A stretch of 64,000 nucleotides of DNA, taken from NCBI GenBank assembly GCA_964475485.1, contig CAYYWY010000002.1, positions 104,257 to 168,256 of the forward strand, in the 5' to 3' direction. Origin of the DNA: an uncultured Nitrospiraceae bacterium. Its GTDB lineage: Bacteria; Nitrospirota; Thermodesulfovibrionia; Thermodesulfovibrionales; UBA9159. Shown here piece after piece: positions 2,058 through 56,618 of this stretch (position 1 is the first letter of the stretch; every line of letters begins with the position of its first letter). The position numbers and the translations under genes are program-made. The notes under the pieces are model-generated. The model worked only from the letters and a program-made list of their open reading frames with translations, ran no database searches and was not told where the DNA came from.

Positions 2058-2172
2058 AGCAAGAAGCGACGAGCAGGAGTAAGGAGCGAGAAACCGCTTG
2101 GTGATTGCTTTGCTTTGATTTTACTTCCCACTTCTTAATTCATATTTCTTAGTTGTTCGGTGGAGGGATGAG

Positions 2173-2952: not shown

Positions 2953-3854
2953 GCCGAAGAGCCATCGACTTGGCGGGGAGGAGACTTTCTTTATCGAACC
3001 TTGAAAAGGATCTCTATCCCTCCTACGGCTTTACGAAAGCCCATGTTCTGGAATACTACCGCCGGGTCGCAGTGTTCATCTTGCCCCATTTGGAGGACCG
3101 GGCATTGACTCTGAAGCGATATCCCGGAGGCGTGGATAAGGAGTTCTTTTTCGAGAAACGTTGCCCGGCTCACCGGCCTAAATGGGTAAAGACGGCGGAA
3201 CTCCTCAGGGAGGAAGGAGATCGGATGACGGTCTGCCTGGTCAATGATCTGGAAGCGCTGATATGGGTTGAGAACCTTGCGTCTCTTGAACTCCATGTGC
3301 CCCTTGCCAAAGCGCGTTCCCCTGAAAAACCCGATTCCATGGTTTTCGATCTCGATCCCGGCGATGGATCTGGCATTGTGGATTGCACAAGGGTGGCGCT
3401 TATACTCAGGGACCTTCTCTCCAATCTGAGGCTTGCAAGCTACGTAAAGACCTCGGGCAAGAGAGGTCTCCATCTCTATGTCCCCCTTAACCGCCTGGAA
3501 ACGAATTTTGAGGATACCCGAGCGTTTTCGAAGACCGTAGCGGAAATGATGCAGAGGAATTACCCGGACCTGGTGACCGCAAGAACGGCGAAGCAATACC
3601 GGAGGGGAAAGGTCTTTATCAACTGGTCTCAAAACGACTCAAGAAAGACGATGGTCTGCGTTTATTCCCTGCGTGCCTGCGAAAAACCGGTCGTTTCTTT
3701 CCCCTTTGCATGGAAGGAGTTGGAGAGTTTGGCCCAGCTGGGTGACCCGGATAAGTTCCAGATCATTCATTCGGAAGCCTTAAGCAGGGTCAAAAAACAG
3801 GGCGACCTTTTTCGGGAGGTGCTCGTGAAAAGGCAGAAGCTTCCTTATCTGTGA
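2949..3854 (+). CDS. Stand-alone LigD polymerase/primase domain protein (NHEJ PolDom)
   Basis: LSNLEKDLYPSYGFTKAHVLEYYRRVAVFILPHLEDRALTLKRYPGGV...MVFDLDPGDG...YVKTSGKRGLHLYVPL...GKVFINWSQN: archaeo-eukaryotic-primase-type LigD Pol motifs (DxD, SGxRGxH). GTG start overlaps the Ku2 stop. Confidence 0.85.
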   Translation: MSRRAIDLAGRRLSLSNLEKDLYPSYGFTKAHVLEYYRRVAVFILPHLEDRALTLKRYPGGVDKEFFFEKRCPAHRPKWVKTAELLREEGDRMTVCLVNDLEALIWVENLASLELHVPLAKARSPEKPDSMVFDLDPGDGSGIVDCTRVALILRDLLSNLRLASYVKTSGKRGLHLYVPLNRLETNFEDTRAFSKTVAEMMQRNYPDLVTARTAKQYRRGKVFINWSQNDSRKTMVCVYSLRACEKPVVSFPFAWKELESLAQLGDPDKFQIIHSEALSRVKKQGDLFREVLVKRQKLPYL

Positions 3855-16423: not shown

Positions 16424-16505
16424 GATGGCTATGTTTCAGACACTATTCTTAAAGGATGCTTCCCCCGGTTCGACCGGAGGCGCGGGCCTGAAAAGGAGTG
16501 ATGAT

Positions 16506-17729: not shown

Positions 17730-17753
17730 GTGAGAATGATCAGGAGGAAAGAT

Positions 17754-19058: not shown

Positions 19059-19071
19059 TGAGGAGGATGAA

Positions 19072-29989: not shown

Positions 29990-31927
29990 ATGAAACTGGA
30001 TGACCTCAGGCTCAGCACCAAGTTCAGCCTCGCCGTGGGGCTTATTCTCCTCATTTTCTGCGTAGTTTTTTCCTTTCTCCTGTACCTCCATCTGAAAAAC
30101 AGGGTAATCGAGGACGCCAATGAGAAGACCCTTATCATCATGGCACAGATGGACGCTGTCGGCAATTACATCAAAGAAGAACTGCGCCCCAGAATGTTTG
30201 AAGTTCTCCCGCAGAACAATGAAGATGATTTCGTGGTCGAGGCGATGTCAACTACTCATGTCAAGCTTGGGGTCATGGAAAGGTTCAACAAAGGTTTGAA
30301 GGATTACATCTACAAAAGGGTATCAACTAACCCCATTAACCCCAGAAACAAGGCTGACTCCCTGCATGAGGAGAAGATCGCTTATTTCCAGGGGGACCAT
30401 AACAGGAAATGGTGGAACGGGGTAATTAAGATAGACGGACTCGAATATATAATGAGAGCGAAGCCGGTAATCACTGAGAGGAGCTGTCTGAAGTGCCACG
30501 GTAACCCTTCCAATGCGCCCCGGGGACTCGTAAGAAAATATGGGATAAAGTCGGGCTTTGGATGGAAGGAGGGGGATGTCATGGGTGTCGACTCGGTTAC
30601 GATTCCCCTTGCCGTAACCCTCGGACAAATTAAGAGTATTGCCATATCGACTTTTGTTTTCGGTTTTGCCACCCTTGTCTTCCTTTTTATATCATTGCAG
30701 GGTGCTTTCTGGAGCCTCGTGAGCAGACCCTTAACCAGGCTGACGACGGTATTCAAGGGCATTGCCAAAGGCACCGAGTCCCTCAATCAGGACATTCCCA
30801 TCGCTGCAAAGGATGAGATAGGAGAGTTGACAGAGTCCTTTAACCAGATGGCATATCATCTCTACAGCGCCCAGGAAGATCTGAGGAAGAACGCAGAGAC
30901 CCTCCATTCGATATTCGAGGGGATAAGCGATCCGATCGCCTTGGTTAATCCCGACTGTTCCCTTGAGATCACCAATACCACATATAGAGAATGGGTCGCA
31001 AACGGGATTACGGCTGTCTTCACAAGTGAATGTTCTTCGAGGGACTGTGATACCGATGCCGTCTGCCCTGCCTGTTTCCTCGAAAGGGTGACTAGGGAAA
31101 AGAAGGCACTGTCGGAATACTGGGATGGAGGCAACGGTCACTTCTATTACGTGCATTTCTATCCCATTTTCGATACAGAAGGGAACGTCATTAAGGCAGT
31201 GCATTACGTAAAGGACATTACCGACAAGAAGAAGATGGAGGAACAGATGAGTATGGCTGACAAGCTGGCCGCCCTGGGGCAGCTTTCCGCTGGCATCGCT
31301 CATGAGATAAACAACCCCCTCGGGGGGATACGGCTTTGCTTCAACAACCTCATGACCACCTCAATGGACGAGGAGACGAAGAGGATACACGTCGATGTAA
31401 TAAACTCGGGACTCATAAAGATCCAGGACATCATCAGTCAGCTGCTGGACTTCTCGAAGAAATCGGACTTAAGTGTTTCGAAAGTTTCCATCAATAAGCT
31501 TATCGAGAATGTAATGAAGCTCACCGAGTATCTTGTTTCCGAGAAGGATATCAGGGTTACGAAAAACCTTGCCCCTGACATGCCTGAGATCATGGTGGAT
31601 CAGAACAAGATGGAGCAGGTCTTTCTCAATATCATGCTGAACGCGGTTCAGGCTATGGACAACGGAAGACCCAGAGAACTGACCATCGAGACGTCATCAA
31701 AGGACGGCTACTGCAGCGCTTCCTTTGCTGATTCGGGACCGGGGATTTCCGAAACAGTTATGCCTCATATCTTTGAGCCTTTTTTCAGCACCAAGCCGGT
31801 GGGCGAAGGAACGGGTCTCGGCCTTTCGGTGAGCAAGTCCATCGTCGAGCAGCACAATGGCAGGATCGCCGTTGAGACCTCGAGTCAGGGAACGAGATTT
31901 ACGGTCAGGATACCTGTCTCGCTATGA
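29990..31927 (+). CDS. Sensor histidine kinase with periplasmic heme-c (DUF3365-like) domain, HAMP, Cys-rich PAS, HisKA and HATPase_c
   Basis: N-terminal TM; ERSCLKCHGNPSNAPRGLVRKYG (CxxCH); second TM plus HAMP (DEIGELTESFNQMAYHL); PAS with ECSSRDCDTDAVCPACFLE; H-box LSAGIAHEINNPL; G-boxes DSGPGI and GEGTGLGL. Confidence 0.85.
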   Translation: MKLDDLRLSTKFSLAVGLILLIFCVVFSFLLYLHLKNRVIEDANEKTLIIMAQMDAVGNYIKEELRPRMFEVLPQNNEDDFVVEAMSTTHVKLGVMERFNKGLKDYIYKRVSTNPINPRNKADSLHEEKIAYFQGDHNRKWWNGVIKIDGLEYIMRAKPVITERSCLKCHGNPSNAPRGLVRKYGIKSGFGWKEGDVMGVDSVTIPLAVTLGQIKSIAISTFVFGFATLVFLFISLQGAFWSLVSRPLTRLTTVFKGIAKGTESLNQDIPIAAKDEIGELTESFNQMAYHLYSAQEDLRKNAETLHSIFEGISDPIALVNPDCSLEITNTTYREWVANGITAVFTSECSSRDCDTDAVCPACFLERVTREKKALSEYWDGGNGHFYYVHFYPIFDTEGNVIKAVHYVKDITDKKKMEEQMSMADKLAALGQLSAGIAHEINNPLGGIRLCFNNLMTTSMDEETKRIHVDVINSGLIKIQDIISQLLDFSKKSDLSVSKVSINKLIENVMKLTEYLVSEKDIRVTKNLAPDMPEIMVDQNKMEQVFLNIMLNAVQAMDNGRPRELTIETSSKDGYCSASFADSGPGISETVMPHIFEPFFSTKPVGEGTGLGLSVSKSIVEQHNGRIAVETSSQGTRFTVRIPVSL

Positions 31928-33285
31928 AGGGAAAGATACTCATCATCGAAGACGAACCTTCCATGAGGCTTGGGATGAGCCACTTCCTTTCATCTTCCGG
32001 ATATGAGGTGAAGGTTTGCGAGGATGGCGCGAAAGGGATTTCGGCCATTGAGAAGGAGGCCTTCGATCTTGTCATTACGGACCTCAAGCTTCCCTATTAT
32101 GACGGGCTCACGATTCTCCACCGGATAAAGACGGTCTCACCCGATACCGGCGTCATTATCGTGACTGCTTATGCGGATGTGAAGACCGCCGTGCAGGCGA
32201 TGAAGGACGGGGCCTTTGACTATATCGCAAAACCGTTCTCCAATGAGGAGTTGGTGATAACCGTCGACAGGTTCCTTAAGTTCCGCACCCTCGAAAGAGA
32301 GTTGCTCCGGCTGAGGAGTTCCTTCCGCGAGGGAACATGTTTCGAGAATATCATAGGTGTAAGCAGCTCAATGAGAGACGTATTTGACCGGATAGAATCC
32401 GTTGCGAAGACTGACGTGCCGGTTCTTATTCAGGGCGAGAGCGGCACGGGGAAGGAACTCGTTGCAAACGCTATTCACAATATGAGCCCGCGCAGGGATA
32501 AACCCTACATAAAGATAAACTGTGCCGCCATTCCGGAGGCCCTTTTCGAGACGGAACTCTTCGGACATGAGAGGGGGACATTCACGGGAGCGACCGAAAC
32601 AAGGAAAGGGAAATTTGAGACAGCCAACGCTGGGAGCATCTTCTTTGACGAGATAGGGGAAATGCCCCTCGGATTACAGGCAAAGCTTCTCAGGGTCATT
32701 GAAGACCACACCGTCACCCGCCTTGGAGGCGACAAGCCTGTGAAGGTCGATGCGAGAGGCATTTATGCTACGAGCAAGAATCTTAAGGAGGTGATCAGGA
32801 CAGGGGGGTTCAGGGAAGACCTCTTTTACAGGATCAATGTCGTACCCATCGTACTCCCTCCTCTCAGGGAGAGGAAGGAAGATATCCCTTATATTATGGA
32901 ATTCTTCATCAAGTATTTTGGAGAAAAGTTTTTAAAACCGGAGTTGAAGATAACCCCGTCGGCCTATGAGGCCCTGATGGCGTACCGTTATCCTGGAAAT
33001 GTACGGGAACTGAAGCATGCCATAGAGAGGGCCGTGCTTCTTTCAAAGAACGGACTGATCGATCTGGGTGACCTTCCCGAAGAGTTTTCCAGCGGGGGGA
33101 GGCCTGAAGGCTCTGTAATTCATGAAGCAACTCTGCAATCAAATGTCGCAGGGCTGGAGAAACAGATGATCATCAATGCCCTTAAAGAGGCGAAAGGCAG
33201 GAGGATTGAGGCATCAAGAATTCTGGGGATCAGCAGAAAGGTTCTCTGGAAGAAGATGAGAGACTACGATATAGGCGCGACCTAA
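31924..33285 (+). CDS. Sigma54-dependent response regulator (NtrC family: REC, AAA+, Fis-type HTH)
   Basis: ILIIEDEPSMR...VITDLKLP (REC); GESGTGKELVANAIH; ETELFGHERGTFTGA (GAFTGA variant); C-terminal EASRILGISRKVLWKKM. Start overlaps the kinase stop. Confidence 0.9.
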   Translation: MKGKILIIEDEPSMRLGMSHFLSSSGYEVKVCEDGAKGISAIEKEAFDLVITDLKLPYYDGLTILHRIKTVSPDTGVIIVTAYADVKTAVQAMKDGAFDYIAKPFSNEELVITVDRFLKFRTLERELLRLRSSFREGTCFENIIGVSSSMRDVFDRIESVAKTDVPVLIQGESGTGKELVANAIHNMSPRRDKPYIKINCAAIPEALFETELFGHERGTFTGATETRKGKFETANAGSIFFDEIGEMPLGLQAKLLRVIEDHTVTRLGGDKPVKVDARGIYATSKNLKEVIRTGGFREDLFYRINVVPIVLPPLRERKEDIPYIMEFFIKYFGEKFLKPELKITPSAYEALMAYRYPGNVRELKHAIERAVLLSKNGLIDLGDLPEEFSSGGRPEGSVIHEATLQSNVAGLEKQMIINALKEAKGRRIEASRILGISRKVLWKKMRDYDIGAT

Positions 33286-33387
33286 GTTCCCAAGAGGGTA
33301 CAAATAACCATGACTAATGTTCCCATAACAGGACATTAATCGCTCACCGGATATTGTAAGCATTCATAAATAAAGGATTCTGTCACA

Positions 33388-33402
33388 TGGCACTGTCCTT
33401 GC
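33388..33402 (+). promoter_or_regulatory. Sigma54 (-24/-12) promoter
   Basis: TGGCACtgtccTTGCg is a near-perfect match to TGGCAC-N5-TTGC. It lies about 100 nt after the NtrC-type regulator gene and about 125 nt before the rhodanese ATG. Confidence 0.75.
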
Positions 33403-33524
33403 GAGCTCTTTACTATGACTATGAGAAGCATCCATCTTTTTCCTGATATTCCCATTCCTTAGAATTCCAATGGCGATACTATCGGGGGCCGGATGTATTT
33501 CACAAAATAAGAGAAGAGGAGGCT

Positions 33525-34502
33525 ATGATGAAGATGAAGAGGTTAACGGCGGCGGTTTCGATTGTTATCTTATTATTGCTGGCTGCCACGACAGCTCTGG
33601 CTGCTGGGTATGCAAATCCGCAACTGCTGGCGACGCCGGCCGAGATCGAGAAGAACATGGGAAAGTGGGTTGTGCTCGATTGCCGCGATGACAAGGCATA
33701 TGCAGAGGGCCATATCCCCGGCGCAATAAACCTGGGCGGCGCATGTGCCAAGGTGATGCGGGACACCACATTAAGGGTGAAGAAGACCGGAGATCTCGAG
33801 AAGATGCTGGGCGAGGCGGGGGTCAGCATGGACAAACCGGTGGTTGTTTATGCCGATGCAAAACTTATAACAGGCGCTTCTGTCGCTTTCTGGGTGCTTG
33901 AATATCTCGGGCACAAAGATGTACGTTTCCTCAACGGCGGTATTGAGGAATGGACCGCAGCCGGCAAGCCTCTTGAGAAGGCGCCTGTAAAACTACCGGC
34001 GACGGCATTCAAGGCGAATGTCGTTAAGAGCAGGATAGCTACTACCGACGAGGTAGTCAAGATCGCCAAGGGAGAGATCAAGGGAGTGCAGGTGATCGAT
34101 TCGAGGACGGAAAAAGAGCACAAGGGAGACGATATTAGGGCGCTGAGGGGCGGTCATATCCCGAACACTACGATGAACGTGTCCCACGTCGATACATATC
34201 ATGTCGAGACGGGAGAGCTCTATTCTGCGGACAGTCTTGAAGCGCTTTTCGGCAAGCTCGACAAAAACAAGAGGACTATACCGTACTGCCAGACCGGTAC
34301 GCGTTCCACCCTCACATATCTTCAGCTTAGGCTGATGGGGTTCAAGGACCCTGCCAATTACGACGACTCATGGATCATCTACGGGAGCAATGTGGATAAT
34401 CCAGTTGCGAACGAGAACTGGTACGACTTTGTGAAGGTGAATGATGCACTCAAGACCATTGATGCATTGAAGAAGGAAATTGAAGGGCTGAAGAAAAAGT
34501 AA
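33525..34502 (+). CDS. Periplasmic tandem-rhodanese sulfurtransferase (thiosulfate/3-mercaptopyruvate type)
   Basis: Signal peptide MMKMKRLTAAVSIVILLLLAATTALAAG. First domain: VVLDCRDDKAYAEGHIPGAINL. Second domain has the active-site loop PYCQTGTRST. Lys-rich coiled tail. Confidence 0.85.
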   Translation: MMKMKRLTAAVSIVILLLLAATTALAAGYANPQLLATPAEIEKNMGKWVVLDCRDDKAYAEGHIPGAINLGGACAKVMRDTTLRVKKTGDLEKMLGEAGVSMDKPVVVYADAKLITGASVAFWVLEYLGHKDVRFLNGGIEEWTAAGKPLEKAPVKLPATAFKANVVKSRIATTDEVVKIAKGEIKGVQVIDSRTEKEHKGDDIRALRGGHIPNTTMNVSHVDTYHVETGELYSADSLEALFGKLDKNKRTIPYCQTGTRSTLTYLQLRLMGFKDPANYDDSWIIYGSNVDNPVANENWYDFVKVNDALKTIDALKKEIEGLKKK

Positions 34503-34514
34503 TGAAATAACGAA

Positions 34515-34543
34515 TTGACACTTGGGGCTTTTAGTGCTCTAAT
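34515..34543 (+). promoter_or_regulatory. Candidate internal sigma70 promoter
   Basis: TTGACA (34515-34520), 17-nt spacer, TCTAAT (34538-34543), upstream of ATG 34579. Confidence 0.4.
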
Positions 34544-34578
34544 ATGCCCGATATTTGCTGAAAGGAGGCGAAGGAGAA

Positions 34579-34851
34579 ATGAAGACAGTTGCAATGTCGA
34601 TAAGCCTGGTATTCATGATGTTTCTTACGGGTGCGGGCTTCGCCGCACATCAGGAGGAAAAGGCGGCTCCAAAAGGAATCGTCACGAAAATAGCGGTTTC
34701 GGAATACGAGGTGACGATTAAGGACGACAAGGGAAAGGAAACTAAGGTAAAAGCCAAGGATATTTCCGATATCCAGGTCGGTGACAGCGTCATTGTCACA
34801 CAGGATGGCAAGATAAAGAAGGCTGTGAAGCCGAAGACAGGGGGGTATTAA
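34579..34851 (+). CDS. Small secreted Lys-rich protein, unknown function
   Basis: ATG 34579 after AAAGGAGG..AAGGAGA. Signal peptide MKTVAMSISLVFMMFLTGAGFAA. The mature part is about 65 aa and beta-rich (VTIKDDKGKETKVKAKDISDIQVGDSVIV). Confidence 0.55.
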   Translation: MKTVAMSISLVFMMFLTGAGFAAHQEEKAAPKGIVTKIAVSEYEVTIKDDKGKETKVKAKDISDIQVGDSVIVTQDGKIKKAVKPKTGGY

Positions 34852-34932
34852 GGATAATTCCAAGGATGAACTTCAATAATCCAATATTAGTTGACCGGTT
34901 TGCTATAGAGATTATCAGGAAAGGAGGAATGT

Positions 34933-36465
34933 ATGGCGGAGAAAAACAAGTTGTCAGCCCTGTGGAAAAATGAAGACTGGCTCGCCGTCTGGATAGGTTT
35001 TTCCCTTATCGTTCTGACCCTCGCAGCCTACCAGTGGAAGATACTGGACCTGAAGAAAGTCAACCCGAGCTTCAGGTGGGCAACGGACGGACAGATCGCG
35101 AGTCGTGTCGACAAATGGTCAGGCGCCATAGACCCGCTTATTAGGGATGCGGAGGCCAAGGGTGAAATGGGCACTGTGAAGCGGCTCCAGGCCCTGAAGG
35201 ATGCCCTTGCAAAAAAGGACAGAAAGGAAATCATGAAGGCTGCCGAGAAGGTTGAACCGATAGGAGGGCTTCCCGCGCAGGTGGCAAAGGAGATAATCGG
35301 GCACGCCAAGGCCGCTACCGGCAAGGTGTTCACAGGGGAAAATATCACAAGAGCCATTAAGATAGGAATTGTCTACCTCATTGTCGCCGCGATAGGCCTC
35401 GTGTTCATGGGGGGCGTCCCGCTGGGGAAATTCATCGTGGGGTTCCCTATAGTGTTCATCCTGGCCTGGTTGTCGCGCTTCATTGCCGGTAATGCGTGGC
35501 CCGTCGACTGGGGATTTGAGTATGTCGTCTTCTGCCTTATTGTCGGTCTTCTCATAAGCAATACCATAGGAGTCCCTGAATGGCTGATGCCTGCTGTGAG
35601 GACCGAGTATTACATCAAGTCTGGGCTCGTTATCCTGGGTGCAGGTATCCTATTCTTCGAGATACTCCAGGGAGGAGCCCTCGGCATAATACAGGGCGTC
35701 CTTGTCGTTGCCGCGGTATGGTACTTTTGCTTCTGGTTGGCGACAAAGGTTATGAAGGTTGACGACGACTTTGCCGCCATGCTTTCATCGGGCGTTGCCA
35801 TCTGCGGGGTTTCTGCGGCTATCGCCACCTGTGGCGCGATAGAGGGGGACAAGAAGAAACTCTCCTATGTGGCTTCTCTCGTCCTGATCGTGGCGGTCCC
35901 GATGATGGTCATCGAGCCATGGATAATCAAGGCCTTCGGGATCCCCGAGCTTGTTGGAGGCGCCTGGATTGGCGGCACTCTCGACACGAGCGGCTCAGTT
36001 GTGGCTGCCGGCGCACTCGTCGGCGAGGCGGCGATGAAGACTGGTGTCATAGTGAAGTTCTCCCAGAACGTCCTGATCGGCGTGGCTGCTTTTGTGCTTT
36101 CCATCTGGTGGACGGTAAAGAGGGGCGCTACTACAGGTCAAAAAGTGAGCGCCGGCATTATCTGGGAGAGGTTCCCGAAATTCGTGCTCGGCTTTCTTGT
36201 TGCGTCTGCATTATTCTCTTTCGTGCTTCACATCGATACAGTCGGCGCCACGAAGAGCGTTCTTGGCGAGTTGAGGACCTGGTGGTTTGCCCTCGCCTTC
36301 ATGTCGATCGGGCTGGAGACGCGCTTTGTCGATCTGGCGAGGATGGAGGGCGGCAGGCCCGCAGCGGCCTTTATCATCGCTCAGACATTTAATGTCCTCT
36401 GGACGCTCATACTGGCCTATCTTCTCTTCGGCGGGTATATCTTTCCGGTGCCGGATATCAAGTAG
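34933..36465 (+). CDS. YeiH/UPF0324-family putative sulfate(sulfur-compound) exporter, long form
   Basis: Polytopic membrane protein with SSGVAICGVSAAIATCGAI...GGAWIGGTLDTSGSVVAAG, typical of the YeiH family. It has an extra soluble insert after TM1. Confidence 0.75.
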   Translation: MAEKNKLSALWKNEDWLAVWIGFSLIVLTLAAYQWKILDLKKVNPSFRWATDGQIASRVDKWSGAIDPLIRDAEAKGEMGTVKRLQALKDALAKKDRKEIMKAAEKVEPIGGLPAQVAKEIIGHAKAATGKVFTGENITRAIKIGIVYLIVAAIGLVFMGGVPLGKFIVGFPIVFILAWLSRFIAGNAWPVDWGFEYVVFCLIVGLLISNTIGVPEWLMPAVRTEYYIKSGLVILGAGILFFEILQGGALGIIQGVLVVAAVWYFCFWLATKVMKVDDDFAAMLSSGVAICGVSAAIATCGAIEGDKKKLSYVASLVLIVAVPMMVIEPWIIKAFGIPELVGGAWIGGTLDTSGSVVAAGALVGEAAMKTGVIVKFSQNVLIGVAAFVLSIWWTVKRGATTGQKVSAGIIWERFPKFVLGFLVASALFSFVLHIDTVGATKSVLGELRTWWFALAFMSIGLETRFVDLARMEGGRPAAAFIIAQTFNVLWTLILAYLLFGGYIFPVPDIK

Positions 36466-46328: not shown

Positions 46329-47645
46329 ATGGCGAAAAAGGCTGTAAGAGTCGGTATTATCGGCTTTGGAACCGTGGGAACCGGTACGGTAAGGATACTT
46401 CTCGAAAACAGAAAGATTCTCTCACTGAGAGCGGGGTTCGACGTAATTATCAGGAAGATCGCCGACAAGGACATTCTAAGAGACAGGGGAATTGCGCTTC
46501 CCGAAGGCATACTCACGTCCGGTGCCGAGGACATACTCGATGACCCTGAGATCGACATAGTGGTGGAGCTTGTGGGGGGGATAAATCCTGCCAAGGATTT
46601 CATTCTCGATGCCATACGCAGGGGAAAGCACGTGGTGACAGCAAATAAGGCCCTCCTTGCAACGGAGGGAAACGAGATATTCAACGAGGCGAGGAGGTAC
46701 GGTGTTGACGTGGGTTTTGAGGCCTCCGTTGCAGGTGGGATTCCAATCATAAAAGTGATCCGCGAGGGGCTTGTCGCGAATAATATGATTGCGATATACG
46801 GGATTATCAACGGAACGTCCAACTACATTCTCACCAAAATGACTGAAGAGAAAGTCGGATTTTCAGAGGCTCTAAAAGAAGCCCAGAGGCTCGGTTATGC
46901 AGAGGCCGACCCCACATTCGATATTGAGGGTATAGACTCCGCGCACAAGCTGGCGATCCTCGCATCCCTTGCATACGATATACCCCTCTCATTCCAGGAG
47001 GTATACAAGGAGGGTATAACGAAGATAACTCCGCAGGATATCGAGTTTGCCTCAGAACTGGGATATAAGGTTAAGCTCCTTGCCATAACAAAGGCTTCGG
47101 ACGGCGAGGTGGAGATGAGGGTGCATCCCACAATGTTACCGGACGAGTACCTGATATCGAAGGTTGATGGCGTCTTCAATGCTGTGTATATCGAGGGAGA
47201 CGCGGTCGGGTCGACCCTTTATTATGGGAGAGGGGCTGGGGATATGCCCACCGGCAGTGCCGTAGTGGCCGATATCGTTGACATAGGGAAAAGCGTAATC
47301 ACGGGTGGTACGAGAAGGGTTCCTGTCGTACCAGAGTCCGGAGAGGTAGCCGGACTAAGGCATATCAAGAAGATGGAAGACATCGAGAGCATGTATTACT
47401 TCCGGTTTTCGGCGCTGGACAGGCCTGGGGTGCTGTCCAGCATATCCGGGATTCTCGGGAATCACAACATAAGTATAGCCTCGGTAATCCAGAAAGGGAG
47501 AAGGATCGGCGGTTCTGTTCCTCTGGTTGTCCTCACCCATAGGGCAATGGAAAGGGACGTCCTTCACGCGATAAAGGAAATCGACACCCTGCCGGTCGTC
47601 TCTGACAGAACATTGTTCGTAAGAGTTGAGGGGAAGGAAGAATAG
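46329..47645 (+). CDS. hom: Homoserine dehydrogenase (with C-terminal ACT domain)
   Basis: MAKKAVRVGIIGFGTVGTG...VVTANKALLA...ASVAGGIPII...NGTSNYILT...GYAEADPTFDIEGID...ACT: YYFRFSALDRPGVLSSISGILG. Confidence 0.95.
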   Translation: MAKKAVRVGIIGFGTVGTGTVRILLENRKILSLRAGFDVIIRKIADKDILRDRGIALPEGILTSGAEDILDDPEIDIVVELVGGINPAKDFILDAIRRGKHVVTANKALLATEGNEIFNEARRYGVDVGFEASVAGGIPIIKVIREGLVANNMIAIYGIINGTSNYILTKMTEEKVGFSEALKEAQRLGYAEADPTFDIEGIDSAHKLAILASLAYDIPLSFQEVYKEGITKITPQDIEFASELGYKVKLLAITKASDGEVEMRVHPTMLPDEYLISKVDGVFNAVYIEGDAVGSTLYYGRGAGDMPTGSAVVADIVDIGKSVITGGTRRVPVVPESGEVAGLRHIKKMEDIESMYYFRFSALDRPGVLSSISGILGNHNISIASVIQKGRRIGGSVPLVVLTHRAMERDVLHAIKEIDTLPVVSDRTLFVRVEGKEE

Positions 47646-47742: not shown

Positions 47743-47988
47743 GTGGAAGATATCAGAGTGGACAAAAAGATAAACATAAAGGGCCTTGTCTGCCCTTACA
47801 CGTTTGTGAAGTCGAAGCTTGCTGTGGAGGATCTTGAGGTGGGCCAGGTTCTGGAGATACTTCTTGATTATGAAGAAGCGTCGAGGAGCATCCCCAAATC
47901 CATGGAAGATCACGGGCAGAAGGTGCTGAGGGTCGAGAAGATCAACGAAACCGACTGGATAATCCAGATAAGGAAGGAGAAGGAGTGA
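47743..47988 (+). CDS. tusA: TusA/SirA-family sulfurtransferase
   Basis: INIKGLVCPYTFVKSKLAVEDLEVGQVLEILLDYEEASRSIPKSMEDHGQKV: the conserved Cys-Pro motif and fold pattern of TusA-like proteins. GTG start. Stop overlaps the next gene's start. Confidence 0.8.
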   Translation: MEDIRVDKKINIKGLVCPYTFVKSKLAVEDLEVGQVLEILLDYEEASRSIPKSMEDHGQKVLRVEKINETDWIIQIRKEKE

Positions 47989-48788
47989 TGGAATTCACCG
48001 AGGACCAGCTCCAGAGGTACAGCAGGCACATAATCCTTCCGGAGGTTGGTGGTAAGGGGCAGAAGAAACTTCTCCGTGCGAAGGTGTTCATTGTCGGCGC
48101 CGGCGGACTGGGGTGTCCCGTGGGGTATTATCTCGCTGCCGCGGGGATTGGCACCATAGGTATTGTCGACAACGATTCCGTTGAACTCAGCAATCTCCAG
48201 CGCCAGATAGCGCATAATACGAGTCGTCTCGGCGTTCTTAAAGTTGACTCGGCAAAGGAGACTTTCGAGGCATTGAACCCTGATGTGAAGGTGATTGGGA
48301 TACGGGAGAGGATTACAAAGGACAATATCAAGGATCTGATAAGGGATTATGATGTTGTGGTCGACGGCAGTGATAATTTCCCCACGAGGTACCTCGTTAA
48401 TGACGCATGCGTGATGCTCCGGAAACCTCTTGTGAGCGGCGCCATCCTGAGGTTCGAGGGGCAGGTCACCACTATTGTACCAGGGGAAGGGCACTGCTAC
48501 CGCTGTCTCTTTGAAGAAATGCCCCCTGCGGGCCTCGTGCCTTCATGTCAAGAGGCGGGTGTAATCGGTGCCATACCGGGTGTGGTCGGCTCGCTTCAGG
48601 CCATCGAGGTCTTCAAACTGATCCTCGGGAAAGGGGATGTCCTCAGGAACACCCTTCTTATCTTTGACGCCCTCAAGACGACCTTTAGAAGGGTGAAAGT
48701 GCCGAAGAACCAGGACTGTCCCGTCTGCGGAGAGCATCCTTCTATTACGGAGCTGCAGGACTATGACGCAGGATACTGCAGGATATAA
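47985..48788 (+). CDS. moeB: MoeB/ThiF-family E1-like adenylyltransferase
   Basis: QLQRYSRHIILPEVGGKGQKKL...IVGAGGLGCPVGYYLAAAGIG...DNDSVELSNLQRQ...DGSDNFPTRYLVND; zinc CxxC pairs CYRC and CPVC. Confidence 0.9.
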   Translation: MMEFTEDQLQRYSRHIILPEVGGKGQKKLLRAKVFIVGAGGLGCPVGYYLAAAGIGTIGIVDNDSVELSNLQRQIAHNTSRLGVLKVDSAKETFEALNPDVKVIGIRERITKDNIKDLIRDYDVVVDGSDNFPTRYLVNDACVMLRKPLVSGAILRFEGQVTTIVPGEGHCYRCLFEEMPPAGLVPSCQEAGVIGAIPGVVGSLQAIEVFKLILGKGDVLRNTLLIFDALKTTFRRVKVPKNQDCPVCGEHPSITELQDYDAGYCRI

Positions 48789-48996
48789 CCTGAGTCAGTA
48801 ATACTTTCGCCCGGCATGGGAGAACTGTATTTCAGAAAGATTGAATTGGTCGTTGATGCGCTGCAAGGGTTGGATCAAATGGTGATGTATTTGCCTTCAT
48901 GGAAGTTATGGAACAGGGCGTTACCTGCTCCATGGCGAACCCAGACAATCTTGCTGCAAGCCAACCTTCCCATGCCTCGTCGTGGGTCATAGTGAA

Positions 48997-49440
48997 ATGC
49001 GCCGCTTGATTATCCCCGAACATATCTTTGAAGAGATGCTTGCCCATTGCAGGGAAGGCTATCCCGACGAGGCATGCGGCATACTCGCGGGGAGAGGCGA
49101 TGAGGTTCAGAAGATTTACAAAGCTGACAATATTGAGCATTCTCCAGTCAGGTATGAGATGGACTCAAGAGAACTCATCCGCGCCAATAAGGATATGCGT
49201 GAGAACAACTTGTCAATTCTTTCGATCTATCACTCCCATCCGTCCGCGCCTGCATATCCCTCTCAGACTGATATCAGTCGTGCCAAGCCGTGGAACGGCC
49301 TGCCGCCTGTCTATGGGGAAGCTGCTTACATCATTGTCAGTCTTTTCGAAAAAGAGCCTGTCGTAAAAGCCTTTTCGATCGGGGAGGGAATAGGGGAAGT
49401 TGAGGTCATAATAAGGGAGAAATCACCGGGTTTCTCATAA
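48997..49440 (+). CDS. JAMM/MPN+ metalloprotease (Mec+/CysO-hydrolase-like)
   Basis: EACGILAG...SIYHSHPSAPAYPSQTDI is the JAMM motif (E...HxHx7Sx2D). ATG 48997 preferred; the ORF track starts at GTG 48982. Confidence 0.85.
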   Translation: MRRLIIPEHIFEEMLAHCREGYPDEACGILAGRGDEVQKIYKADNIEHSPVRYEMDSRELIRANKDMRENNLSILSIYHSHPSAPAYPSQTDISRAKPWNGLPPVYGEAAYIIVSLFEKEPVVKAFSIGEGIGEVEVIIREKSPGFS

Positions 49441-49714
49441 ACCCGTTATTTCTGTGCCACGCCTCTCTCGAGAAGCATCCAGCTCTCAAGCGGGATAATA
49501 GAAATAAAGATGTCCGCCTCGCCTCTGTCACTCCCGATTGTTTGCACGGTGAGTTGCCGGAGGAGACAGAACAAGTATAGGAACTGTGGTGAGACTGACA
49601 GTCCCGTGATAATCCAATCAATCTATTTTATTTTGTACCCGTTTGGAGTAAAATATACTTTATTTCAACAAAGGATCCGGCAATTCTTCGCATTCAGTTA
49701 GACGGGAGGTGAAT

Positions 49715-50956
49715 ATGGGTTACGTGAGAGGTCTTAAGTGCAGAGAGTGCGGCAGGGAGTATCCTGTCGATCCCATATATGTGTGCGAATTCTGTTTCGG
49801 TCCGCTCGAGGTCGTGTACGATTACAAGAAAATAAAACGCGTTCTTACGCGGAAGAACATAGAGAAGCGAGAAAAGAATCTCTGGCGGTACAAGGAGCTG
49901 CTCCCCATAGACGGCGAACCCCAGGTTGGTCTGAAGTCCGGCTTCACACCTCTCATCAGGGCCGATAGCCTCGCGGAAGAACTGGGCGTCAGGGAACTGT
50001 ACATAAAGGACGACACGGTTGCCCATCCCACGCTGTCGTTCAAGGACAGGGTGGTTGCGGTGGCCCTTACCAAGGCAAAGGAGTTCGGTTTTGATACGGT
50101 TGCGTGTGCGTCGACGGGCAATCTTGCCCACTCTGTTTCGGCCCATGGAGCAAAGGCGGGTTTCAAGCGGTTTGTCTTCATACCGGCCACCCTGGAGCCG
50201 AGCAAGATTGTGGCGTCCCTTGTTTATGAGCCAAACCTGATTGCTGTTGACGGGAACTATGACGAGGTGAACAGGCTCTGCAGCGAGATCGCGAACAAAT
50301 ACAGGTGGGCATTCGTGAACATCAATATACGGCCGTTCTATGCTGAGGGTTCAAAGACCCAGGGATTTGAAATAATCGAACAACTCGGCTGGAAGGCCCC
50401 TGACAACATTGTGGTCCCATGCGCCAGCGGTTCGCTGCTTACAAAGGTCTGGAAGTCGTTCAAGGAATTCAAGGAGATAGGGATATTGAAAGAACTGGAT
50501 ACCAGGGTTTTCGCCGCCCAGGCAACGGGCTGCTCCCCCATATCCGCTGCCGTAAAGCAGGGTACTGATGTGATTAGGCCAGTAAAGCCAAACACTATAG
50601 CGAAATCCCTGGCAATCGGCAATCCCGCGGACGGCTTTTATGCGCTTCAGGCTGTTAAGGAGACTGGAGGATACGGCGAGGATGTCTCCGACGAAGAGAT
50701 CATCGAAGGGATAAAGATGCTTGCGAGGACAGAGGGGGTTTTTGCGGAAACCGCAGGGGGCGTCACTCTGGCCTGCACGAAGAGACTCATCGAGACGGGA
50801 AAGATAAACAGGGATGAGACAACGGTCATGTGTATCACGGGCAACGGGCTCAAGACCCAGGAGGCGCTGAACGGACATACCGCGTCTCCCCACTACATAA
50901 AACCGAACCTTGCGTCCTTTGAGGAAGTGCTTGGAAGGATTCAAAGCACAGAATGA
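49715..50956 (+). CDS. Threonine-synthase-family PLP enzyme with N-terminal zinc ribbon (candidate sulfur-carrier-dependent O-phosphohomoserine sulfhydrylase, MetM-like)
   Basis: LKCRECGREYPVDPIYVCEFCFGPLEV (4-Cys ribbon); HPTLSFKDRVVAVAL (PLP-Lys motif); ACASTGNLA; fold-type II PLP pattern. A separate canonical thrC lies 650 nt downstream. ATG 49715, 5 nt after GGGAGG. Confidence 0.7.
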   Translation: MGYVRGLKCRECGREYPVDPIYVCEFCFGPLEVVYDYKKIKRVLTRKNIEKREKNLWRYKELLPIDGEPQVGLKSGFTPLIRADSLAEELGVRELYIKDDTVAHPTLSFKDRVVAVALTKAKEFGFDTVACASTGNLAHSVSAHGAKAGFKRFVFIPATLEPSKIVASLVYEPNLIAVDGNYDEVNRLCSEIANKYRWAFVNINIRPFYAEGSKTQGFEIIEQLGWKAPDNIVVPCASGSLLTKVWKSFKEFKEIGILKELDTRVFAAQATGCSPISAAVKQGTDVIRPVKPNTIAKSLAIGNPADGFYALQAVKETGGYGEDVSDEEIIEGIKMLARTEGVFAETAGGVTLACTKRLIETGKINRDETTVMCITGNGLKTQEALNGHTASPHYIKPNLASFEEVLGRIQSTE

Positions 50957-51080
50957 AGGGAATCAGCAACAGCGGGCACAGAGACCAGCTGCAGGGTGCT
51001 CAAAGAAAACTGAAAACTAATGTGCAATCTGTGGCGAAAATATATTTGGCCCGGCTCGTCCGGGTTGGGAGGTGAGATAA

Positions 51081-51356
51081 ATGGCTGTAAAAGTGAGGAT
51101 TCCGACTCCTCTCCAGAGATTGACCCAAGGCAAGGAGGAGGTCGAGGGCACTCCTGGTACCATTATGGAACTTGTGACAGACCTTGACAAGAGGTTCCCG
51201 GGCTTGGGAGAGAGGATTTCCGAAGGCGGCAAGATTCGCAGGTTCGTCAACATTTATGTGAACGAAGAGGACATACGCTTTCTGAAGGCGGAGGAAACCG
51301 TAGTGAAGGACGGGGACGAGGTATCCATTGTCCCTGCTATCGCAGGAGGCATATAA
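51081..51356 (+). CDS. MoaD/ThiS-family sulfur-carrier protein (C-terminus ...AIAGG-I)
   Basis: MAVKVRIPTPLQRLTQGKEEVEG...IRRFVNIYVNEEDIRF...VKDGDEVSIVPAIAGGI: beta-grasp carrier with a diglycine followed by one extra residue. Confidence 0.8.
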   Translation: MAVKVRIPTPLQRLTQGKEEVEGTPGTIMELVTDLDKRFPGLGERISEGGKIRRFVNIYVNEEDIRFLKAEETVVKDGDEVSIVPAIAGGI

Positions 51357-51368
51357 AGAGGAGGATAT

Positions 51369-51605
51369 ATGAAACGGCGTGTGAAGTTGACCTTCCCGCA
51401 GCATCTCATTAAAGAACCGGTGATTTTCACCATGGCAAAGAAGTTCGATGTGATGCCGAACATCAGAAGGGCGAGGGTGACCGAGACGGTGGGAGAGATG
51501 GTGCTGGAACTGGAAGGGGCGGAGGAGAATCTCGAGAAGGGGATTCGGTCCCTGAGGGAGCAGGGAGTGGATGTGGAGCTTGTGGAAGGAGACATTATAG
51601 AGTAA
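51369..51605 (+). CDS. Stand-alone NIL-domain protein
   Basis: [66 protein letters not shown] is the NIL domain pattern (as in the MetN C-terminus and methanogen NIL-ferredoxin proteins). Confidence 0.7.
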
Positions 51606-51606
51606 C

Positions 51607-52668
51607 ATGGAATGGCGCGGAATAATAGAAGAATACAGACCATTCCTTCCTGTTTCTGATGCTACGCCGGTCATCACTCTGAAAGAGGGCAATACCCCTC
51701 TTATCAGATCGACGAACCTTGATAGGAAGCTCGGCATGGACCTCGAAGTCTACCTGAAGTTCGATGGTGAGAATCCTACGGGTTCTTTTAAGGACAGAGG
51801 GATGACCATGGCCATTTCCAAGGCGGTGGAAACAGGCTCGAAGGCCGTGATCTGCGCGTCGACCGGGAACACCTCTGCCTCTGCAGCGGCCTATGCGGCA
51901 AGGGCCGGAATAAAGGCGATCGTGATCATACCCGAGGGTAAAATAGCCCAGGGCAAACTGGCGCAGGCGCTAATTCACGGTGCTCATGTGCTCCAGATCG
52001 AGGGGAATTTCGACGATTCGCTCAAGATTGTGAGGGCCCTGTCAGAGATGTACCCTGTAACCCTCGTGAATTCAGTTAACCCTTTCCGGCTCGAAGGACA
52101 GAAATCCGCAGCCTTTGAGATCTGTGACCAATTAGGCTTTGCTCCCGACTTTCATGCCCTTCCGGTGGGAAATGCGGGCAATATAACTGCATACTGGAGG
52201 GGATATAAGGAGTTCAGGGAAAGGGGCAGGATCGCGGAACTGCCCAGGATGCTCGGGTTCCAGGCTGCCGGAGCGGCTCCGATTGTCCTTGGACGTCCCG
52301 TGGAAAAGCCGGAGACAGTCGCCACCGCGATAAGGATAGGTAAGCCTGCCAGCTGGAGGGGCGCAGAGGCGGCGAGGGATGAGTCCGGAGGAAGGATCGA
52401 AGCAGTGACGGATCAGGAGATACTGAATGCCTACGGTCTTATAGCGTCCTCGGAGGGGATATTCTGTGAGCCTGCTTCTGCAGCATCGGTTGCCGGTGTC
52501 ATAAAATTATATAAGGAAGGCTATTTCAGGAAAGGCGCAAGAATCGTCTGCACCCTGACAGGGCACGGACTGAAGGATCCTGATACGGTATTTAAGGTTG
52601 CCCTGGAACCTTTGAGAGTTAAGGCAGAGATAGAGATCGTGTCAAAGGTGATCGAAGAGATACTATGA
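51607..52668 (+). CDS. thrC: Threonine synthase
   Basis: [10 protein letters not shown]...[19 protein letters not shown]...[20 protein letters not shown]...[13 protein letters not shown]. Confidence 0.95.
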
Positions 52669-53876
52669 AATACATTGTAATCATCGGCGACGGCATGGCG
52701 GACAGGCCGCTTAAGGAGCTGGAGGGAAAGACCCCACTTCAGAAGGCATTCACTCCCAATATGGATAAACTTGCCAGGGAGGGCATCATCGGCTCCGTGA
52801 GAACGATTCCCCCCGGTTTCCATCCAGGCTCAGATGTGGCGAACTTGAGTATACTCGGGTATGACCCGAGGGCCTTTTATAGCGGACGTGCGCCCTTGGA
52901 GGCCGCGAGTATGGGGGTCGATCTTGCCGAGGGAGACATAGCCTACCGGTGCAATCTCGTTACTCTGAAATTCGATCAAAAGAGGACCCGGGCTGTGATG
53001 GAGGATTACAGCGGAGGACATATATCGACTGAAGAGGCTGCCGTCCTTATAAGAGACATTGACGCGAAACTGGGGACCGAAGAGATGAGGTTCTATCCTG
53101 GTGTGAGCTACCGTCACCTCATGGTATGGAAGAACGGATCACTGGATGTAGAATGCATTCCTCCTCACGACATCATCGGCAAGGAGATCTCCGATTATCT
53201 ACCTGCGGGGAGAAGCGAAGAGGTTTTGCGGACTGTCATGATGGCCTCTGTCGGAATCCTTGACAGTCATCCACTCAACAAGGAGAGGATTGCCAAAGGG
53301 AGGAAGCCTGCAAACAGTATATGGCTCTGGGGGCAGGGGAGAAAACCCCGGTTGCCGACGTTCAGAGAGAAGTACTCCATTGACGGAGCACTTGTCTCGG
53401 CCGTAGACCTGACAAAGGGGCTTGGTGTTTATGCCGGGTTCGAGATTCTCAAGGTTCCGGGCGTTACGGGATACCTCGATACCAACTACGCAGGGAAGGC
53501 CGAGTATTCCTTGGATGCGCTGGGAAGGCACGACCTCGTGTATATCCATGTTGAGGCTCCGGATGAAGCGGGACACTCCGGCAATTACGGGGACAAGGTC
53601 AAGGCCATCGAGGACTTTGACGCCCTTGTGGTCGGCACGATCCTCAGAGGAGTGAGGGCCTTTGAGGAATACAGGATCTTACTGCTCCCTGACCATGCTA
53701 CCCCTATCGAAGTAAGGACGCATACCGACGAACCCGTTCCCTTCGTCATATACGACAGCCGTGTAAAAAGAAAGAACGAAGGCGCCGCCTTCGACGAATC
53801 CCTCCTCCAAAGGAATGACTTGCTTATGATTGAGGAAGGACACAGACTGATGGATTATTTTATAAAAGGGGAATAA
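52665..53876 (+). CDS. Cofactor-independent phosphoglycerate-mutase-family protein (ApgM/COG3635-like; probable non-orthologous homoserine kinase)
   Basis: [26 protein letters not shown]...[15 protein letters not shown]...[12 protein letters not shown]...LLPDHATP are the metalloenzyme-superfamily motifs. The start overlaps the thrC stop (ATGA). Confidence 0.75.
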
Positions 53877-55397: not shown

Positions 55398-56618
55398 ATG
55401 CTTGTTGTCCAAAAATACGGCGGCACCTCTGTTGCAAACATTGAAAGGATAAAGGCTGTTGCGGAGCGTGTGGTGCAGGCCGCCCGGCAGGGCAATAAGG
55501 TGGCTGTGGTCGTGTCCGCCATGGCGGGGGAGACCGACAAGCTGATTAGCCTGGCCCATGAGATATCCCCTAATCCGAGTGAAAGAGAGATGGACCTGCT
55601 TTTATCTTCCGGGGAGCGTGTAACGAGCGCCCTCACTGCCATCGCGATTGAAGCTCTTGGCCAGAAGGCAATGGCCTTCACAGGCAGACAGATGGGGATC
55701 ATCACCGACACCGTCCATACAAAGGCAAAGATCGAGAGGATAACCGGGGAAAGGGCGAAGAAGGTTCTTGACGAGGGTTATGTGGTTGTGGTCGCAGGAT
55801 TTCAGGGGATAACAGAAGGGCATGACGACGTGACCACCCTCGGCAGAGGCGGATCCGATCTTTCAGCAGTTGCCATTGCATCGGCGCTGAATGCCGATCT
55901 CTGTGAGATTTACACTGATGTCGACGGGGTCTATACCACCGATCCCAATATAGTTCCGGATGCCAGGAAACTCGGGAAGATCTCTTATGAGGAGATGCTC
56001 GAGCTTGCGAGCCTCGGGGCTAAGGTGCTCCAGACCAGGTCTGTGGAGTTTGCAATGAAATACGAAGTTCCGGTTGTGGTAAGATCCAGCTTCAACGATA
56101 ATCCCGGCACGCTGGTTACCAAGGAGGATGAGGATATGGAGAAAGTTGCGGTATCTGGGGTTGCATATGACAAGAACCAGGCTAAGATTACCGTTATGGG
56201 AGTGCCGGACAGGCCCGGTATCGCCGCCAGGCTCTTTAAGGGGATCGCGGATGCCAACATCGTTGTGGACATGATCGTCCAGAATGTGAGCAGTGACGGC
56301 AAGGCCACGGATATTTCGTTTACAGTGCCGAAAACCGACAGCAGGAAGGCGGTAAAACTTACCGAAGAGATCGCGAGGGAGCTGGGGGCGAGGGGCGTAA
56401 CCCAGAGGGAGGATATCGCAAAGATCTCAATCGTCGGGGTAGGTATGAGAACCCATTCAGGTGTTGCAGCAAAGATGTTCGAGACCATGGCAGCACACGG
56501 TATAAATATCATGATGATCAGTACCTCGGAGATAAAGGTATCGTGCGTCATCGAGTCGAAGTTTACGGAACTCGCCGTTAGGGTTCTGCATGATGCCTTT
56601 GAGCTCGGTAAGGGGTAA
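55398..56618 (+). CDS. lysC: Aspartate kinase (monofunctional, two ACT domains)
   Basis: [25 protein letters not shown]...[11 protein letters not shown]...VVAGFQG...TTLGRGGSD...ACT: [19 protein letters not shown]. Confidence 0.95.

Follow-up and report, generated by a model that had tools for sequence, protein, structure and literature searches.

We analyzed a 64,000-nucleotide (nt) stretch of the genome of a Thermodesulfovibrionales bacterium, referred to below as the window, in which a cluster of sulfur-transfer genes at positions 47743-51605 of the + strand lies among the genes for homoserine and threonine synthesis. The cluster consists of six consecutive open reading frames (ORFs) on this strand, each with a strong family match in Pfam and NCBIfam. 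A sequence-only reading of this DNA had described the same six genes, lying between hom and the pair formed by thrC and a probable homoserine kinase gene, and had taken them for a route from O-phosphohomoserine to homocysteine. The ORFs were indeed found at these positions, and the three flanking genes matched PRK06349, TIGR00260 and TIGR02535, respectively. The features of the locus are as follows, with protein lengths in amino acids (aa):

46329-47645, + strand: hom, homoserine dehydrogenase with a C-terminal ACT domain (NCBIfam PRK06349, 540 bits against a cutoff of 205; Pfam Homoserine_dh, NAD_binding_3 and ACT)
47743-47988, + strand: TusA-family sulfurtransferase, 81 aa (Pfam PF01206, E 1e-18)
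47985-48788, + strand: E1-like adenylyltransferase of the MoeB/ThiF/UbaA type, 267 aa (Pfam ThiF PF00899, E 2e-86)
48997-49440, + strand: JAMM/Prok-JAB metalloprotease, Mec/HcyD-like (Pfam PF14464, E 1e-24)
49427-49445, + strand: terminator-like hairpin with a T-rich tail (consensus scan, a pattern match only)
49623-49665, + strand: AT-rich promoter-like motif (near-invariant block in four aligned upstream regions)
49715-50956, + strand: MetM-like enzyme, a ThrC homolog, 413 aa (PALP E 5e-67, plus NinF)
51081-51356, + strand: MetO-like beta-grasp sulfur carrier, ThiS/MoaD-like, 91 aa (Pfam PF02597 (ThiS), E 3e-17)
51369-51605, + strand: stand-alone NIL domain, 78 aa (Pfam PF09383, E 6e-19, 68 bits against a cutoff of 24)
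51607-52668, + strand: canonical threonine synthase, ThrC (TIGR00260, 330 bits; E 1.6e-153 to Aquifex ThrC 2zsj)
52665-53876, + strand: HomK, homoserine phosphotransferase related to phosphoglycerate mutase (TIGR02535, 'proposed homoserine kinase', 564 bits against a cutoff of 446)
55398-56618, + strand: lysC, aspartate kinase (NCBIfam PRK06635, 619 bits)

The ThrC-like enzyme (mechanical ORF from GTG 49709, likely start ATG 49715) begins with a four-cysteine zinc ribbon that matches Pfam NinF. It had been read as distinct from the canonical ThrC encoded some 650 nt downstream, and this was borne out, as the two paralogs are 35% identical, differ in their active-site signatures and are encoded 651 nt apart. 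Homologs were collected by a one-genome-per-species scan, which yielded 80 loci in more than 11 phyla whose encoded proteins are 55-87% identical to the window enzyme. The search profile was built from a 9-sequence alignment, an earlier 40-sequence alignment having proved too divergent. Neighbor counts given below use the 76 loci with enough flanking sequence, and riboswitch counts use all 80. In a joint alignment covering more than 11 phyla, the window enzyme shares 51-90% identity (median 60%) with 83 members of this family, which we call MetM-like, and 28-37% with 11 canonical ThrCs, five of which have solved structures. Its counterpart in Dissulfurispira thermophila is 90% identical.

The two groups are separated by fixed active-site residues. 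In Thermus thermophilus ThrC numbering, the 84 MetM-like sequences have L at position 88, I or V at 155, R at 157, Y at 160, S or A at 164, and S or G at 188, where the 11 ThrCs have T, S, N, R, Q and N. The combination L88/R157/Y160 is thus present in 84/84 family members, and T/N/R in 11/11 ThrCs. The window enzyme lacks the canonical set T88, S155, N157, R160, Q164 and N188, which the adjacent ThrC (51607-52668) carries in full. The Schiff-base lysine that aligns with T. thermophilus K61 is retained in all 84 sequences, as expected of fold-type II enzymes dependent on pyridoxal phosphate (PLP). ThrC uses the retained phosphate to direct water onto C-beta. Since the residues presumed to hold the phosphate are replaced, the MetM-like enzyme would not keep it for this purpose, and the substitutions fit an enzyme that would release phosphate and take another nucleophile at C-gamma. 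A tree of the ThrC-like protein against ThrC, which the sequence-only reading had called for, gave a consistent picture: by neighbor joining, every sequence with an L/V-R-Y signature falls into one clade of 130 that contains 0 canonical ThrCs, and the same clade holds the window enzyme together with actinobacterial homologs that stand under S-adenosylmethionine (SAM) riboswitches. Some zinc-ribbon ThrC-like proteins fall into neither group: among representatives at 36-42% identity, about one third lack both signatures and carry A88/T160-type patterns instead (e.g. KSTGNANTNTKKDGN), which points to at least one further uncharacterized subfamily.

The genomic context of the MetM-like genes is conserved well beyond the window. 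A ThiS/MoaD-type carrier gene lies directly 3' of the enzyme gene in 66/76 loci, and a SAM-I riboswitch directly upstream on the same strand was detected with an nhmmer profile in 29/80. The 17 riboswitches that were checked with Rfam all passed RF00162, at 71-96 bits. Two actinobacterial loci, from Micromonospora and Nonomuraea, are likewise preceded by a SAM-I riboswitch. The Micromonospora enzyme is 51% identical to that of the window, and in Nonomuraea the riboswitch is followed by an enzyme gene and then a carrier gene whose products are each 51% identical to their window counterparts. The Nonomuraea pair came from a tblastn search of a plasmid collection, in which a chromosome had been filed as a plasmid. 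This order of riboswitch, enzyme and carrier is the one attributed to metM-metO of Streptomyces albulus (PMC12172450). A search for a Streptomyces MetM seeded with a Micromonosporaceae representative (P0126) returned only Micromonosporaceae.

An unbiased census of neighboring genes across the loci recovered CysK/M-type synthases, E1, JAMM, TusA and aspartate-family genes, along with clusters that, from a reading of representative sequences, were labeled Rrf2 regulator, sulfite-reductase-like, PAPS-reductase-like and DsrE/F-like. The sequence-only reading had proposed co-variation with molybdopterin or thiamine genes as a counter-test. No recurrent look-alike of molybdenum cofactor (Moco)/molybdopterin-synthase or thiamine/thiazole-synthase genes (MoaE, ThiG) appeared in the census, whose clusters were named by inspection. 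A ModC/CysA-like ATP-binding cassette (ABC) ATPase is found nearby in 10 loci. Four cyanobacterial loci (L050:6274-6534 and three others) encode a second small ThiS/MoaD-like protein ending in PPVSGG, a few hundred nt 5' of the MetM-like gene on the same strand and in addition to the downstream MetO-like carrier. In a group of Nitrospirales loci (L023, L031, L037, L038, L042, L046, L073 and L080), the genes stand in the shared order CysK-like, E1, MetM-like, carrier, NIL, second E1 and JAMM, with two paralogous short E1s in one cluster.

Taken together, the clade, the carrier adjacency, the riboswitches and the neighboring genes support what the sequence-only reading had suggested, namely a MetM/MetO-type route with logic like that of CysO/MoeZ/CysM/Mec. 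We consider it very likely from these sequence features that the cluster makes homocysteine from O-phosphohomoserine by such a protein-thiocarboxylate route, one that here forms part of a Thermodesulfovibrionales aspartate-family operon. The core pathway is not new: a thiocarboxylate route from O-phosphohomoserine to homocysteine was published for S. albulus in 2024 (Hasebe et al. 2024, Appl Environ Microbiol 90:e01247-24), and it is already represented by the steps MetO, Mec, MoeZ and MetM in GapMind 2026. The cluster is therefore most likely a member of the MetM/MetO pathway in a new phylum rather than a new pathway. It stands out by the arrangement of TusA with a short E1 and, above all, by a recurrent NIL partner, which is the new element.

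Two proteins, TusA and the E1, are predicted to load the carrier with sulfur. TusA has the conserved Cys-Pro motif (KGLVCPY), and its stop codon overlaps the start of the E1 gene by 4 nt. The E1 has a ThiF domain over residues 12-247 of 267 and scores 309 bits with the MoeB model PRK05690 (cutoff 266) and 343 bits with UbaA. The MoeZ model PRK07878 matches only at profile positions 14-273 of 392, with 308 bits against a cutoff of 647, and no rhodanese domain was found in the 267-aa protein, ThiF being its only Pfam match. Homologs of this E1 occur at 330-385 bits within MetM-like clusters of other phyla. TusA stands at the same position in D. thermophila and was found in 6 loci; it adjoins the E1 or carrier gene only in clusters with short E1s of 267-273 aa and was not seen with longer ones (346-478 aa, in which a rhodanese domain is assumed), save for one weak case with an E1 of 355 aa (L010). 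Because TusA is confined to clusters with short E1s and is coupled here to an E1 without rhodanese, it is plausibly the persulfide supplier. By analogy, we propose that the E1 works like the adenylation half of MoeZ, with TusA replacing the rhodanese.

The carrier, which starts 125 nt 3' of the stop codon of the MetM-like gene, was confirmed in translation to end in AIAGG-I, as had been read from the sequence. The Gly-Gly is thus followed by a single extra isoleucine, and by analogy one residue would have to come off to expose it, probably through trimming by the JAMM protease. Among the carriers encoded across the loci, 40 have GG as their C-terminus and about 18 are longer by 1-6 residues. 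The JAMM gene (mechanical ORF from GTG 48982, likely start ATG 48997) encodes an intact E...HxH-x7-S-xx-D motif, with HSH, as read from the translation (HSHPSAPAYPSQTD and the upstream DEACG). The NCBIfam desampylase model gives it 74 bits, below the cutoff of that model.

The pathway that we infer would begin with Hom and HomK, whose family matches predict that they make O-phosphohomoserine, the branch point shared with the adjacent ThrC. The HomK family has been validated by complementation in Bacteroides and Dehalococcoides (GapMind 2026). The JAMM protease would remove the extra C-terminal residue of the carrier, the rhodanese-less E1 would adenylate the exposed terminal glycine, and a persulfide on TusA would supply the sulfur that converts the carrier to its thiocarboxylate, by analogy with MoeZ/CysO and with TusA alongside MoeB in Escherichia coli. 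The ThrC-like PLP enzyme would then eliminate phosphate from O-phosphohomoserine, with the thiocarboxylate entering at C-gamma in a gamma-replacement. Homocysteine could be freed directly or by the JAMM protease after an S-to-N acyl shift. ThrC would compete with the MetM-like enzyme for O-phosphohomoserine, and NIL, an ACT-like small-molecule sensor closest to the MetN C2 domain and presumably made stoichiometrically with the carrier, would most likely tune the system.

This NIL protein, like TusA, had been singled out by the sequence-only reading as an under-described addition. This was borne out, and for NIL the evidence turned out stronger than that reading could know. Its gene starts 12 nt past the carrier stop codon and has its own Shine-Dalgarno sequence. 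A NIL gene was found near the carrier in 37/76 loci from at least 11 phylum-level groups, and in none of the cyanobacterial loci. In 8 loci, carrier and NIL form a single polypeptide in which ...AIAGG is followed by a linker of 4-22 residues and then NIL. Since the carrier needs a free Gly-Gly, such precursors must be cut, and the fusion implies cleavage by the JAMM protease. Indeed, a JAMM gene is present in 7/7 complete carrier-NIL fusion loci and in 10/60 of the remaining carrier loci (Fisher p = 2e-5, without correction for shared ancestry). Outside Nitrospirota, several loci (L006, L015, L019, L021 and L033, and also L016; e.g. L006:6815-12032) have a single SAM-riboswitch-led operon in which the MetM-like gene and a carrier-NIL fusion are joined by E1 and JAMM genes, by one or two synthases of the CysK/CysM type and, in some cases, by TusA.

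An AlphaFold (AF2) model of the window NIL protein, with a mean confidence (pLDDT) of 83.6, has an ACT-like beta-alpha-beta-beta-alpha-beta fold. Its best structural match is the methionine-binding C2 domain of MetN (TM score 0.84 and root-mean-square deviation 1.0 Å to the selenomethionine-bound structure 3tuz), followed by ACT domains of amino-acid-regulated enzymes. Residues N31 and A35 align with N295 and A299 of MetN, where N295 hydrogen-bonds methionine, the N295A substitution abolishes binding, and A299 is an interface residue. The 39 NIL sequences that accompany MetM-like genes have a conserved motif, N-I-R-x-A, whose Arg is family-specific and invariant. We rejected the idea that the protein is a fragment of a methionine ABC transporter, as the protein is conserved in its 78-aa stand-alone form and has 4156 matches in the database at E <= 0.001, the best 120 of which are all 78-97 aa long and contain only the NIL domain. 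We also rejected a role as a stand-in for riboswitch control, as many loci have both NIL and a SAM riboswitch (including L006, L015, L027, L028, L049 and L077). In the literature, we found no paper linking NIL with ThiS-type carriers, thiocarboxylate or JAMM. In a Nitrospinaceae locus (L035:11296-12032), 3 kb from the MetM-like, carrier and E1 genes, TusA is immediately followed by a protein of 183 aa that contains the NIL domain twice in tandem and thus amounts to a covalently linked form of the dimer that NIL makes in MetN.

On the basis of the model, the most likely role of NIL is to bind methionine or homocysteine and to modulate either the carrier, the protease or the enzyme. We tentatively put forward the more specific possibility that the MetM/MetO system has an unrecognized third component in NIL, which as an ACT-like module would sense methionine or homocysteine and be produced in stoichiometric amounts with the carrier; in 8 lineages it would be delivered as a JAMM-cut carrier-GG-NIL precursor, and its ligand could then gate carrier maturation or enzyme activity. 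If true, an amino-acid pathway would be under feedback control through the regulated processing of a ubiquitin-like protein, with the precursor cut as in a ubiquitin fusion. A serious alternative, which we hold to be possible without favoring it, keeps the core pathway but makes NIL a mechanistic adaptor or chaperone rather than a regulator; it might, for example, keep the homocysteine part of the carrier adduct in place for the JAMM protease, hand homocysteine to methionine synthase, or serve as a cleavable cap that protects the Gly-Gly. Such a role would suit the 1:1 translated fusion with the carrier, the JAMM gene in every complete fusion locus, and the coexistence with SAM riboswitches, which makes NIL no simple substitute for riboswitch control; moreover, the DUF39 pathway to homocysteine, itself unrelated, requires a NIL-ferredoxin (PMC5764234), suggesting a tie to homocysteine chemistry beyond methionine sensing. 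However, the nearest relatives of NIL in structure and sequence are allosteric methionine-binding domains whose ligand-contacting Asn is kept, and about half of the family, including all cyanobacterial loci, has no NIL nearby, which suggests that it is dispensable for the chemistry.

The order hom-TusA-ThiF-JAB-PALP(NinF)-ThiS-NIL-PALP-HomK is identical in the complete genome of D. thermophila (AP022873.1), so the arrangement is conserved and not a chance juxtaposition. The likely start of hom is ATG 46329 (mechanical ORF from GTG 46272). The canonical thrC starts 1 nt past the NIL stop codon, and lysC, cimA and ilvC follow downstream of HomK, lysC representing the entry step of the aspartate pathway, from which the cluster is supplied. 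The terminator-like hairpin overlies the JAMM stop codon. About 50-90 nt 5' of the MetM-like start codon lies the promoter-like motif CTATTTnATTTT...TTTGGAGTAAAATA, with TAAAAT at 49649-49654, a block that is kept across four otherwise unalignable Thermodesulfovibrionales upstream regions and probably acts as a promoter. The hairpin and this block together suggest two transcription units, hom-TusA-E1-JAMM and enzyme-carrier-NIL-thrC-HomK, and the second of these stands alone at the locus in some close relatives. The gap between the E1 and JAMM genes (window 48789-48996) is about 210 nt long, against 80 nt in D. thermophila; it holds a non-conserved 58-aa ORF (48816-48992) and gave no Rfam match. 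In the 125-nt spacer between the MetM-like and carrier genes, just 5' of the carrier Shine-Dalgarno sequence, a GC-rich hairpin (CCCGG-CTCGT-CCGGG, 51044-51058) may have a role in differential expression.

Several observations weigh against the assignment of the cluster to the MetM/MetO pathway. The window enzyme scores 299 bits with TIGR00260 (thrC), above the cutoff of 167; this model evidently does not separate the MetM-like from the ThrC subfamily, and MetM is often misannotated as threonine synthase (GapMind 2026). No SAM riboswitch was found in the window, either at Rfam gathering and permissive thresholds or with the custom nhmmer profile, and the 275 nt 5' of the enzyme gene contain only the conserved promoter-like block. 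Being a regulatory feature, the riboswitch need not occur in all members of the family. The TusA-E1-JAMM module is missing from the locus in the close relatives L001, L084 and L085, so that it may serve several carriers and not be dedicated to the MetO-like one. Orthology to the characterized S. albulus MetM is indirect, though well supported. The argument from the active site depends on T88, S155, R160 and N188 of ThrC being phosphate ligands, which we take to be the case from the T. thermophilus structures. These structures are said to be those of Omi in 2003 and Murakawa in 2011. Finally, a cyanobacterial member of the family, the Microcystis 'ThrC', which reportedly shares 51.6% identity with S. 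albulus MetM, acted in vitro both as a threonine synthase and as a threonine deaminase, and methionine did not rise when it was overexpressed (PMC12172450). Of note, the Microcystis work used sulfide and not a thiocarboxylated carrier (PMC12172450).

Some of these points would suit an enzyme that is a second threonine synthase, or a synthase/deaminase, with the carrier, E1, JAMM and TusA serving Moco, tRNA thiolation or protein conjugation and lying nearby by chance. Besides the TIGR00260 score, all database annotations read 'threonine synthase', the Microcystis homolog has ThrC-like kinetics on O-phosphohomoserine together with deaminase activity (PMC12172450), the E1 scores best with the MoeB and UbaA models, and the E1 module is unlinked in some close relatives. 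We nevertheless regard this explanation as improbable: a canonical ThrC with the full signature is encoded 651 nt downstream in the same operon, six ThrC-invariant active-site positions are replaced and the replacements are fixed in the entire family, the carrier gene is the next one after the enzyme gene in 66/76 loci across phyla, SAM riboswitches and not controls of a threonine or isoleucine type stand upstream in 29/80 loci, and no recurrent unlabeled neighbor resembles MoaE or ThiG by inspection. With the Microcystis report in mind, the alternative is weakened but biochemically still standing. A cysteine product, made by a ThrC-like enzyme acting on O-phosphoserine in a CysO/CysM/Mec pathway, appears very improbable. 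The overall logic is identical to that of CysO/MoeZ/CysM/Mec in Mycobacterium tuberculosis, where CysM uses O-phosphoserine and the CysO thiocarboxylate, and CysK/M-type enzymes share a cluster with the same E1 and JAMM in 20/76 loci. However, the window enzyme is of the ThrC type, the best cysteine-synthase model giving it 35 bits (E 9e-9), below the cutoff of 387, and the window cluster has no CysK/M gene. Where other loci have true CysK/M genes, these stand beside the MetM-like gene and do not take its place, an indication of two distinct products. Regulation by SAM and the immediate context of hom, thrC and HomK, the makers of O-phosphohomoserine, also speak against cysteine. Homocysteine synthesis of the MetM/MetO type accordingly remains the reading that we prefer. 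A scan of window ORFs, from which several smaller ones were left out, turned up no conventional met genes.

The cluster resembles the S. albulus MetM/MetO system in having a ThrC-homologous PLP enzyme beside a ThiS/MoaD-type carrier, in the need for a JAMM protease and an E1, in the provision of O-phosphohomoserine, here by neighboring genes, and in SAM riboswitch control at the family level, with enzyme and carrier as close to the actinobacterial pair as given above. It differs in lacking the riboswitch, in pairing TusA with an E1 that has no MoeZ rhodanese, in the one-residue C-terminal extension of the carrier, in the NIL protein that follows it, and in the gathering of all components within hom-thrC-HomK. 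The M. tuberculosis CysO system shares the attack of an E1-made carrier thiocarboxylate on a PLP-bound intermediate of an O-phospho amino acid, as the mechanism is generally described, and a JAMM hydrolase. In the window, by contrast, the PLP enzyme is of the ThrC type, and the predicted substrate is one carbon longer, so that a gamma- rather than a beta-replacement would give homocysteine. A protein-thiocarboxylate methionine pathway of Wolinella succinogenes, HcyS/HcyF/HcyD/MetY, was reportedly described by Krishnamoorthy and Begley in 2011, a work cited in PMC5764234. It is said to share trimming of an extra C-terminal carrier residue by a JAMM protease, E1 activation and a homocysteine product, but its MetY is reportedly a fold-type I O-acetylhomoserine sulfhydrylase acting on O-acetylhomoserine, whereas the window encodes a fold-type II ThrC homolog for which O-phosphohomoserine is the predicted substrate.

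The NIL protein has PF09383, the fold, and the equivalents of Asn295 and Ala299 in common with the MetN C2 domain. Unlike the latter, it has no ABC ATPase attached, being a stand-alone protein in the window and fused to the carrier in other loci, and it has the invariant Arg of N-I-R-x-A. A genetic tie between NIL and homocysteine synthesis is also known from the DUF39 and NIL-ferredoxin pathway of methanogens and Desulfovibrio (MA1821/MA1822, DvMF_1464/DvMF_0262) (PMC5764234). That system starts from aspartate semialdehyde and bypasses homoserine, and its NIL is fused to a 4Fe-4S ferredoxin with DUF39 as partner, whereas the 78-aa window protein consists of NIL only and no DUF39 match was found among the window ORFs scanned with Pfam and NCBIfam. 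Cleavable carrier fusions have precedents in MoaX (MoaD-MoaE) of M. tuberculosis and in the DRJAMM-cleaved MoaD-MoaE of Deinococcus (PMC4326299, PMC8832034), where the partner domain is likewise translated C-terminal to the carrier Gly-Gly and has to be cut for activity. Here the partner is NIL and not MoaE, and in the window the two are separate genes.

Thousands of genomes annotate the MetM-like enzyme as 'threonine synthase', and L88/R157/Y160 together with an adjacent carrier and a SAM riboswitch provides a simple rule for re-annotation. This would fill the homocysteine gap in many uncultured phyla, among them Nitrospirota, Nitrospinota, Verrucomicrobiota, Planctomycetota, Chloroflexota and Cyanobacteria. 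As the window brings the complete set of components together at the O-phosphohomoserine branch point, the partitioning between threonine and methionine becomes directly testable. The recurrent NIL proteins and their carrier fusions point to an undescribed regulatory or adaptor layer, and NIL gains a second independent link to homocysteine synthesis, besides the methanogen pathway.

Other parts of the window contain further modules. Two adjacent Ku-domain genes followed by a LigD primase-polymerase domain gene (window 1236-3854) look like a bacterial non-homologous end-joining module, with no obvious ligase domain in the same ORF. A putative large extracellular oxidase cluster (window 10805-21717) encodes an 1872-aa protein with BACON, beta-helix, SdrD-B and InlB-B-repeat domains and then three multicopper-oxidase-domain proteins, the last of which also has BACON and CarboxypepD_reg. 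At 29990-36465, 13 kb upstream of the cluster, a sigma-54 two-component pair (Tll0287-like sensor kinase and NtrC-type regulator), a tandem-rhodanese protein (33525-34502) and a YeiH-like membrane protein (34933-36465) may form a second sulfur-related module.

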